Position numbers and translations under genes: made by a program. From a bacterium (GTDB taxonomy: Bacteria > Zixibacteria > MSB-5A5 > GN15 > FEB-12), in contig JBDRNJ010000014.1 of assembly GCA_043811375.1 (NCBI GenBank), positions 1-64,000 on the forward strand: DNA of 64,000 nt, written 5' to 3'. The first letter of the stretch is position 1, and the number at the start of each line of letters is the position of its first letter. Below the pieces are notes generated by a model. It saw nothing but the letters and a program-made list of their open reading frames with translations, made no database searches and was not told where the DNA came from. Shown piece by piece: positions 27,940-30,527 of the stretch.

Positions 27940-28240
27940 TGAATCCCCTAACCCTCCTTATGCACCACCATCGCTGAGGCCTGGGCGGTGGGTAAGATGA
28001 TTACCAACCTCAGCCGGAGATACACTCGTAAACCCGCCCGTGACAAGGGGGATGGATGCTGATGGGAACACCTGAGGAGAAAACACTTGTCAATTTCCCG
28101 ATCTTGGTTATACTGTTGGAAGGTCCAATCATCTGGAGGCGCTCGAGGTTAAAACGTAACATTCGACACCCGAGAGCCGAAAGTAAACCCGCTCGATATG
28201 TGCCGACCTGCAAAGAGTACGATCTTGCCGGAAAGGAGTA

Positions 28241-29455
28241 GTGCGCAGAACTATGTGTTCAAAGTTTTTCGTTATTGTCGTCTGTCTGGTATTTTGCTGC
28301 CTGACCGAAACCGGTTCGGCGGTGGTTATCGTCAGCGGTGTCATTCCGGCTGACACCACCTGGACCAGCTCTGACACCATTTTGGTCACAGGTTCCGTGA
28401 CGGTTGCCGATTCGGTTCGTCTGACCATCCAGGCCGGAGCAGTCATCATGTTTGCCAACAACACCGGTCTGTTCGTTGAGGGCGAACTTATGGCTGACGG
28501 TGAGAAAACCAGTTGTATTCATTTCACTAACAGCGCCGATACATCCGGCGGCTCACCAGTGGCCGGATCGTGGTACGGACTGAACTTCCCACAAAACAGC
28601 ACCGGCATTTTGTATTACTGTAATCTGCGCTATGCCTCGGACGGCGTCACAGTGAGCAGATCGTCCGGTGAGTTCTACAACTGTGTAATCGAAAACTTCC
28701 AGAGTAAAGGTTTCCACATAGACGGCTACCAACTGAATCCGCCCATCACGACGGTCATCGAGGGCGGTGTGGTTCGCCAGGTAGAAAGCAGTCTGCTCGG
28801 GACCGGCTTCGGAATATACATCTACCAGTCAGTCGACGTATCCATCAGTAACTGCTCCATCAGCGGTTGTGATGTCGGCCTGGACTTCTTCGGACAGAAC
28901 ACCTACGCACCCCACTACCAGATATACGGATGCGATATTCGCGATCACGCCACACGAGGTATCTACTCCCACTCGGGCGGGTGAGGCGCCGTCCTATCAC
29001 CGACGGGTTCGGTGCACGGCTCCAACATCGCAGGCAACGGTCTCTATGCCTTCAGCGTCTCCTCCTGCAGTGATCCGACCACGGTGATCGACGCCACCAA
29101 CAACTGGTGGGGGGTGGCCGATTCGGCGGCTATCGAGGCGATCGTCTATCACCAGGTTGATGCTCCCGATTACCCGACTGTTGATTTTGTTCCCTTTGCC
29201 GACAGCGCCTTCGTATTTGGCGATACGATCCCCTGCTGCAACCATGACGGTTTGCGCGGCGACGTTGACTATGACATGTCTCTTAACGTTGGCGATCTGA
29301 CCTATCTGGTGGCTTACCTCTTCCAGGGCGGCCCGGCATCACCATGCAGCGAGGAAGCCAATGCCGACGGCGTAAGCGGCCTTAACGTCGGCGACCTGAC
29401 GTACCTGGTGGCATATCTGTTTCAGGGAGGTCCGGACCCGGCGGCCTGTCCGTAG
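28241..29455 (+). CDS. Secreted right-handed beta-helix protein with C-terminal dockerin-like domain; in-frame TGA at 28982-28984 (putative selenocysteine; alternatively a nonsense pseudogene)
   Basis: ORFs 28241-28984 and 29012-29455 are in the same frame, separated only by one TGA. The joined 404-aa product has signal peptide, DTTW/GSWYGL, beta-helix repeats, DATNNWWG and a duplicated GDLTYLVAYLFQGG. A hairpin follows the TGA. Confidence 0.75.
28985..29023 (+). promoter_or_regulatory. Candidate bacterial SECIS element
   Basis: Lower stem GCCGT(28988-92)/ACGGC(29016-20), upper stem CACCGA(28998-29003)/TCGGTG(29009-14), apical loop CGGGT starting 19 nt after the UGA. Confidence 0.6.
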
Positions 29456-29516: not shown

Positions 29517-30527
29517 ATGCGACTCAGTCATGCTCTGATAGTAATAACATGCATATTATTGGCTTTAGTATCCTGTGGTGATAAATCGACGTCCAATGAG
29601 GATACTAATCCACCAAGAGTACGTTACGTCTATCCGGCGGATAGCGCGGTGGACGTCAGGCGACCTGATTACCTATGGGTCGTTTTTTCTGAAAGTATCG
29701 ATACGAATACTCTGACAACATCTTCCTTCTACTTAGTACCAGCGGTTGACGGATGGATTTTGCCCTCACTTCCTGATCACTGGGATGCAACATTACAATT
29801 GAACGAAGATCTTGAGGAGGGAGCCACGTATCAGGCCATAATAAAGGGCTCAATCGCTGATATGGCCGGAAACAGAATGGGAGAAGACTATGTCTGGTCG
29901 TTTACCACTCTCCCTGACACAGTCAGGCCCAGAATATCATCGATAAGCCCCGACAGTAATACGGCAGCAACGCTGTTTATGGAGATCTCCATAACCTTCT
30001 CCGAGGATATTGATACTTCGCTGGTAACACCAGCCACTTTCTACCTTACTCCGCCTGCCAGCGGTTTCATTTCGTTCCCCTGGGGAAGGAGGACGGCCAA
30101 GTTCAGCTACTATTATCTGGATTGTAACACCGACTACATGGTGACTATCGATGACGCCATAACGGATCTGGCCGGGAACCATCTGGAATCGGATATCACC
30201 TGGTCGTATACCGCATATGTGGATACGGTCAAACCTGAAGTTGGCCTGGTCGTTCCTGAAGACAGTTCCAGCGGTGTACCTACAAGACCAGTGTTACATG
30301 TACGTTTTACGGATGCGATAGATAGCAACAGCGTATCGTTACAAACAGTCGACATTGATCCCTCGGTGGACGGCTTCTTCGACTATTTTTGGAACGGTTT
30401 CTACTTTGTACCGAGTGATACGCTCCTTTCCTATACAGAGTATACCGTTACGCTCAGCAGCACGATATCGGACATATGCGGCAATGAGCTGGGCGAAGAC
30501 TATATTTGGTCATTTACGACCAAGTAA
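29517..30527 (+). CDS. Lipoprotein with three Ig-like (Big_5/SbsA-type) domains
   Basis: Lipobox LVSC; repeats of P.V....P...FSE.ID...Y...I...I.D.AGN.L..DY.WSFTT. Confidence 0.88.
   Translation: MRLSHALIVITCILLALVSCGDKSTSNEDTNPPRVRYVYPADSAVDVRRPDYLWVVFSESIDTNTLTTSSFYLVPAVDGWILPSLPDHWDATLQLNEDLEEGATYQAIIKGSIADMAGNRMGEDYVWSFTTLPDTVRPRISSISPDSNTAATLFMEISITFSEDIDTSLVTPATFYLTPPASGFISFPWGRRTAKFSYYYLDCNTDYMVTIDDAITDLAGNHLESDITWSYTAYVDTVKPEVGLVVPEDSSSGVPTRPVLHVRFTDAIDSNSVSLQTVDIDPSVDGFFDYFWNGFYFVPSDTLLSYTEYTVTLSSTISDICGNELGEDYIWSFTTK

Follow-up and report, generated by a model that had tools for sequence, protein, structure and literature searches.

The question raised by this locus is whether a TGA codon, lying in frame between two open reading frames of a Zixibacteria genome, stops translation or is read as selenocysteine (Sec, U) within one longer protein. 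The window, i.e., the whole stretch of DNA analyzed, comprises 64,000 nucleotides (positions 1 to 64,000 of contig JBDRNJ010000014.1, assembly GCA_043811375.1). Positions 28241-28981 and 28985-29455 share one frame with a single TGA (28982-28984) between them, and the original prediction of a 404-aa read-through product with U at codon 248 was borne out. An ATG at 28253 is an alternative start, giving 400 aa. The features are as follows.

28241..29455, + strand: read-through gene, 404 aa from GTG 28241 (full-length homologues with one TGA)
28241..28321, + strand: likely Sec-pathway signal peptide, inferred from the hydrophobic N-terminus (sequence; modelled N-terminal helix, then a low-confidence linker)
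28322..29215, + strand: right-handed parallel beta-helix domain, including a C-terminal NNWWG cap past the UGA (PF13229; AlphaFold2; fold matches Z 21-25)
28982..28984, + strand: in-frame TGA, putative codon for selenocysteine U248 in a loop that follows a beta-strand (TGA column 22/22)
28998..29014, + strand: conserved SECIS-like upper stem-loop, 6 bp, loop CGGGU (MFE fold, conservation)
29066..29068, + strand: Cys276, one rung further on in the corresponding loop; putative Se-S partner by strand register (Cys shared by 8/22 homologues)
29228..29452, + strand: dockerin-like C-terminal tag (profile matches; 112 tblastn matches across the genome, each ≥45 aa)

The gene is flanked by dxs and an unknown ORF on one side, and by a lipoprotein with three Big_5 Ig domains on the other (29517-30527, likewise + strand, 61 bp beyond the gene); this lipoprotein was not a conserved neighbor of the gene in relatives. 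Promoter and terminator scans performed at chance level, with one 10/12 sigma-70-like site at 28087-28114. No paralogues of the beta-helix domain were found in this genome, in which the tag alone is repeated.

Conservation of the in-frame TGA

Profile searches covered 285 genomes of the phylum, and matches scoring above 190 bits were taken as close homologues. The close family comprised 22 genes from 21/285 genomes and 6 families, the next match falling to 105 bits; the profile placed 21 loci, and a motif match the remaining one (L058). TGA occupied the same column in 22/22 homologues, among which median pairwise identity was 37%. The possibility, raised with the original prediction, that homologues carry Trp, Gly or Arg at this site was not realized (0/22), and neither TAA nor TAG occurred there (0/22).

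Were the TGA a true stop, there would be two conserved genes here, and the hairpin would couple re-initiation at a GTG at 29012; this would agree with the GTG found at this codon in 17/22 genes and with annotation pipelines, which call two proteins. We consider it very improbable, as the 29012 codon is GCG, GTC or GTA in the remaining 5/22 genes, TGA is never exchanged for TAA or TAG across homologues this divergent, and the split would strip the last rung and the cap from what is modelled as one continuous beta-helix. The downstream half, moreover, has no signal peptide, as originally noted, and carries an export or anchoring tag instead.

A sequencing error, or a recent nonsense mutation in a pseudogene, is scarcely credible. 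Although the best sequencing run shared 13% of the sequence words, the TGA common to 22/22 homologues refutes this explanation by conservation, and contigs from two other runs span the TGA unaltered (X1, 28851-29114, 4 differences; X9, 28937-29128, 5 differences), with no sense codon in its place. As sequencing runs shared at most 13% of the sequence words, no claim on habitat or expression was drawn from them; X9 is an RNA library, but contigs do not demonstrate transcription.

Seven close database records carried labels (4 Zixiibacteriota, 3 uncultured Ignavibacteriales), and two database proteins were annotated as beta-helix repeat proteins. An exact-pattern scan of metagenome contigs gave 0 homologues among the 118 loci listed and carries no weight. 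One member, L041 (G268:C41), carries a lipoprotein domain added at its N-terminus and lacks a C-terminal tag, and its genome has two copies of the family. The selA gene was present in 20/21 carrier genomes and not found in the remaining one, an 89%-complete draft; since selA was found in 262/285 genomes of the phylum, this co-occurrence is not discriminating.

The hairpin downstream of the TGA

The full local hairpin (28985-29023) was the MFE fold (-18.1 kcal/mol), with a lower stem at 28988-28992/29016-29020, an upper stem at 28998-29003/29009-29014 and the CGGGU loop at 29004-29008, 19 nt after the UGA. This is the structure described in the original prediction, but in relatives the upper stem alone was kept, and the lower GCCGU/ACGGC stem was not conserved. 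The folding z-score was -2.5 over 46 nt, and with longer windows it lay between -0.7 and +0.2; the hairpin alone is modestly above chance, and its significance comes from conservation. The bSECIS criteria in the available text of PMC13188914 are a loop of 3-9 nt, a stem of 4-16 bp, a G in the first two loop positions, a distance of 16-37 nt from the UGA and an MFE of at most -7.5, and the window hairpin lies within these ranges (5-nt loop, 6 bp, 19 nt, -18.1).

Across the family, hairpin spacing was 16 or 19 nt in 22/22 genes and MFE at most -7.5 in 21/22; in some homologues the MFE fold differs from the core hairpin. The pattern CCG-x-GG(T/C)-TCG was found in 22/22 genes, 12 or 15 nt after the UGA. 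Synonymous codon choice was frozen at CCG (22/22), TCG (22/22), GGT (20/22) and GTG (17/20), i.e., 1.0, 1.0, 0.91 and 0.85, and these four hairpin codons were the top 4 of 35 conserved degenerate columns, the others ranging from 0.29-0.71. This control allows for kinship, because the same genes were used throughout. The 6-bp stem was paired in 97% of cells, compared with 21-51% in slid controls. Three of its pairs were invariant, one changed from A-U to G-U, and two showed two-sided change. Of the covarying hairpin that the original prediction looked for in homologues, the core is conserved and its synonymous sites are frozen, with some compensatory change, but covariation was slight and did not exceed shuffles (61/500 reached the score).

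Selenocysteine decoding in the genome

The genome (95% complete) was searched for the Sec machinery, selA to selD, on which the original prediction depended, and all four components were recovered. Matches to selA, selB and selD were all above profile cut-off, selA adjoins selB, and selD has its own in-frame TGA. The tRNA-Sec scored 68.5 bits against an Rfam gathering score of 47. As prfB is present and TGA terminates 446/1,064 open frames of >400 codons, TGA is not generally reassigned. The prfB match (G000:C9:90439-91479) contains one TAG, which probably reflects the usual RF2 programmed frameshift.

The UGA might alternatively be recoded to a residue other than Sec, i.e., Cys via a special UCA tRNA or Trp/Gly via a changed code, or be passed by leaky read-through. 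The lack of Cys orthologues in the searches leaves room for such recoding; yet the sole UCA-anticodon tRNA among 51 tRNA genes scores as tRNA-Sec, release factor and TGA usage are those of a standard stop codon, and the hairpin conforms to the SECIS model, making this explanation very unlikely.

Genome-wide, 25,881 TGA codons were screened for coding signal on both sides together with a SECIS-like hairpin; 23 passed, among which the TGA of the beta-helix gene ranked 4th. Five further UGA genes, belonging to established selenoprotein types, were found in the genome, three by the screen and two by tblastn. By their motifs we assume these to be SelD, a thioredoxin-like UxxC protein, a HesB-like protein and two DUF1573 UGC proteins; the screen is incomplete, because it missed the two DUF1573 UGC genes. 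The latter (DUF1573/OS_HP2-type, G000:C44:53043 and G000:C51:3534, both - strand) have the in-frame TGA in a UGC motif with a hairpin behind it, and the C44 gene encodes a signal peptide and has a Cys paralogue (GCAC) just upstream. SECIS-like hairpins also accompany the exported thioredoxin-like UxxC gene (G000:C57:13826, -), the HesB-like UGGP gene (G000:C72:221768, +) and the SelD gene (G000:C27:74163, +), with sequences unlike that of the beta-helix gene hairpin.

From the conserved codon, hairpin and machinery, the UGA is very probably read as Sec in one exported beta-helix protein, and SelB-dependent insertion is judged just as probable.

Fold of the protein and surroundings of the selenocysteine

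The read-through product matched PF13229 (E 4.5e-10), and AlphaFold2 (8-sequence alignment) returned a single right-handed beta-helix that runs uninterrupted through the UGA position (pLDDT 87.6, pTM 0.86). Together with the profile matches of the dockerin-like tag, this agrees with the single coherent architecture originally proposed. DSSP assigned a strand at residues 235-242 (numbered from ATG 28253) followed by a loop; in the model, U lies in this loop, two residues past the strand end, and C276 occupies the corresponding loop one rung on. Sec is predicted to sit on an exposed loop.

The G-G-U-G context without CxxU was correctly described in the original prediction, but a Cys (C276) is provided by the next beta-helix rung. 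Neither CxxU/UxxC nor a thioredoxin fold, the marks of thiol-oxidoreductases, was found in this protein. In the family, a Cys near U occurred in 13/22 genes (next rung 8, CxU 2, UxC 3) and none in 9/22; in the three members with the shortest loops, the nearby Cys and U are in exact register. The next-rung Cys may reflect a single evolutionary event, because it is confined to one weakly supported clade (0.48).

Right-handed parallel beta-helix proteins (AlgG/AlgE alginate epimerases, pectate lyases, tailspikes, NosD) have the fold in common with the window protein, e.g., AlgG 4nk8 (Z 24.9, rmsd 2.7, 249 aligned) and NosD 7o0y (Z 22.9, rmsd 2.4, 245 aligned). However, they differ from it in sequence (7-16% identity) and the Z ranking is flat, so no specific beta-helix relative can be named. 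Invariant residues of the family alignment were mostly structural Gly, Pro, Asn, Trp and Phe, plus U. No invariant charged residue was found on the groove strands, where polysaccharide lyases and epimerases would have an acid/base residue, as judged by the alignment alone. The NosD model TIGR04247 matched weakly (7/22 genes, best E 6e-5), which does not place the family in NosD, and no nos genes were among the conserved neighbors. NCBIfam had no model for the beta-helix protein.

Homologues without selenocysteine

Nearly all selenoproteins have Cys-containing orthologues, according to the available text of PMC13188914. Among close homologues, no Cys-containing orthologue aligned to U, which is unusual. 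Database matches at E <1e-25 (n = 14) comprised 12 proteins ending just before U, 1 downstream half and 1 distant full-length protein. In longer proteins (10 matches among 8,000 candidates scored) and in distant repeats, the site held Ser, Asn, His, Tyr or Thr. Cys fell in the U column in 6/94 and 9/214 distant repeats, in which the loops are loosely aligned. The nearest relatives without TGA (L046, L050) had no aligned Cys, save one strand-end Cys in L050. Searching 50%-identity representatives returned mostly giant repeat proteins, and the 6 single-domain top matches all end before U. Public annotation holds the family as truncated halves, e.g., MEE9554971.1 and MFZ5979639.1. One database protein (P0010) terminates with C-G-T immediately ahead of where U is expected and would be a CxxU variant. 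The family seems to correspond to one repeat of a common surface-protein unit, with Sec acquired in a loop.

C-terminal tags

The tag profile matched solved dockerins (best E 2.8e-6), and a dockerin Pfam match was obtained for 8/14 related tags, while the window's own tag misses Pfam. The tag has the duplicated Ca-binding repeat, matching solved dockerins, by which type I dockerins are recognized; a duplicated EF-hand-like tag is shared with type I dockerin (PF00404), whereas extra Cys residues set the window tag apart. Among the 22 genes, the C-terminus was T9SS/FlgD-like in 14, dockerin-like in 6 (including the window gene), absent in 1 and cut off in 1. The 112 genome-wide matches to the dockerin-like tag imply a large family of surface-displayed proteins. 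On these features, the window protein is probably exported and displayed through its dockerin-like tag.

Neighboring genes in relatives

In relatives, a cluster beside the gene encodes a DUF1573/OS_HP2-like protein (GCSC), an Ig-fold lipoprotein with a Cys-Cys motif (mostly NCC) and an outer-membrane barrel of PF13557 type with an N-terminal NCC. Loci of the cluster (L059:1568-3876, L063:1573-3732, L248-L264) were seen in about 20 genomes of the phylum, and literature searches found no description of this three-gene cluster. The neighboring Cys version of DUF1573 (GCSC) matched PF07610 (E 4e-19) and scored below cut-off with NF041425; proteins of this kind (PF07610, NF041425) adjoin the gene in relatives but are not the gene itself, and the two UGC versions of the window genome lie elsewhere.

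A close barrel was found in 20/285 genomes and in 14/21 carriers versus 1.5 expected, a comparison in which kin are not independent. Of these 14 carriers, 9 had it directly adjacent to the gene, 3 had an arrangement that a contig break could explain and 2 had it at another site; the DUF1573 gene was seen in 8/9 adjacent carriers. With the queries used, the close barrel was absent from 7 carriers, including this genome, which was without both barrel and lipoprotein. Six genomes had the close barrel and no match to the beta-helix profile. A TGA of the neighboring lipoprotein (G187) was considered as Sec and rejected, as it lies past the gene end. An association between lack of the cluster and possession of an own partner Cys (7/7 vs 5/14, Fisher p 0.007) was set aside, as the seven fall in two lineages.

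Predicted function and relation to known selenoproteins

Overall, we hold it to be highly probable that the UGA is decoded as Sec via the conserved hairpin, giving an exported beta-helix with a predicted surface selenol that likely engages in reversible Se-S bonding. SelB would read the hairpin behind the UGA and Sec would be inserted; the product would be exported and shown at the surface through the dockerin-like tag, where its single selenol, on a surface loop, could form reversible Se-S bonds. At the cell surface, the selenolate may take up a soft metal ion or a species of sulfur or selenium and, in the window protein, may pair with C276; in relatives, the cargo might be handed to the Cys-Cys lipoprotein, the barrel and the GCSC DUF1573 protein. 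Capture of soft metals or sulfur/selenium species by a surface selenol via Se-S bonds is put forward tentatively as the function. Points against it are the 9/22 genes without a nearby Cys, the missing barrel and lipoprotein in this genome and the 6 barrel genomes without the beta-helix.

The main rival to a capture function is a structural one, in which Sec merely staples the loop (through a Se-S or Se-Se bond, or as a shield against oxidation) of an adhesin or glycan-binding beta-helix, with no capture or hand-off. Polysaccharide enzymes, tailspikes and adhesins are the closest folds, giant surface proteins contain the related repeat and have no Cys at the site, and the absence of barrel and lipoprotein here would suit such a role. 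We nevertheless find it rather unlikely, as Cys could serve the same end yet no Cys version was found, a partner near U is missing in those same 9/22 genes, and the three neighbor genes bear conserved Cys motifs. Returning to capture, a more speculative and unlikely elaboration is that the family constitutes an obligate-Sec surface module without a Cys counterpart; its extracellular selenolate would be the outermost step of a selenol-to-dithiol relay (Cys-Cys lipoprotein, Cys-Cys barrel, and GCSC or UGC DUF1573 protein) that would capture and import the soft metal or S/Se species in Zixibacteria, and T9SS-type and dockerin anchors would swap.

With SelB/SECIS selenoproteins (prototype E. coli fdhF; available text of PMC13188914), the locus shares the in-frame UGA, the stem-loop, the G-G near the loop start and selA-selD; it differs in the beta-helix scaffold, in having no CxxU/UxxC here and in having no Cys orthologue. 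The claim that this is an unrecognized class agrees with the 119-family table (Table 1) of the 2026 catalogue PMC13188914, from which the family is absent; 'helix', 'dockerin' and 'secreted' have 0 occurrences there. In the open main texts of the literature, no description was found of a Zixibacteria selenoprotein, a Sec beta-helix, or a dockerin or type IX secretion selenoprotein. Decoding would follow the known SelB/SECIS route, and the selenoprotein family and its scaffold are most likely new.

In Geobacter, the accessible portions of PMC5877670 and PMC13510729 describe extHIJKL, with the porin ExtI, the rhodanese-like lipoprotein ExtH and the multiheme selenoprotein MccSep/ExtKL, as acting on selenite or polysulfide. 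An exported selenoprotein beside an outer-membrane barrel and a lipoprotein makes this a loose analogy to the relatives' cluster; no homology was shown, and on the account given in those portions the present cluster differs in lacking haems, in a barrel of PF13557 type rather than a phosphate porin, and in an Ig-fold rather than rhodanese lipoprotein.

The usual Sec/Cys-pair filters, a limit stated by deep-Sep in the accessible part of PMC12013277, would miss this family, because it seems to have no Cys orthologue. The finding would add a selenoprotein family on an extracellular beta-helix, a scaffold without catalogued Sec, and the conserved Cys-Cys barrel and lipoprotein neighbors provide a testable lead on the role of selenium at the bacterial surface.
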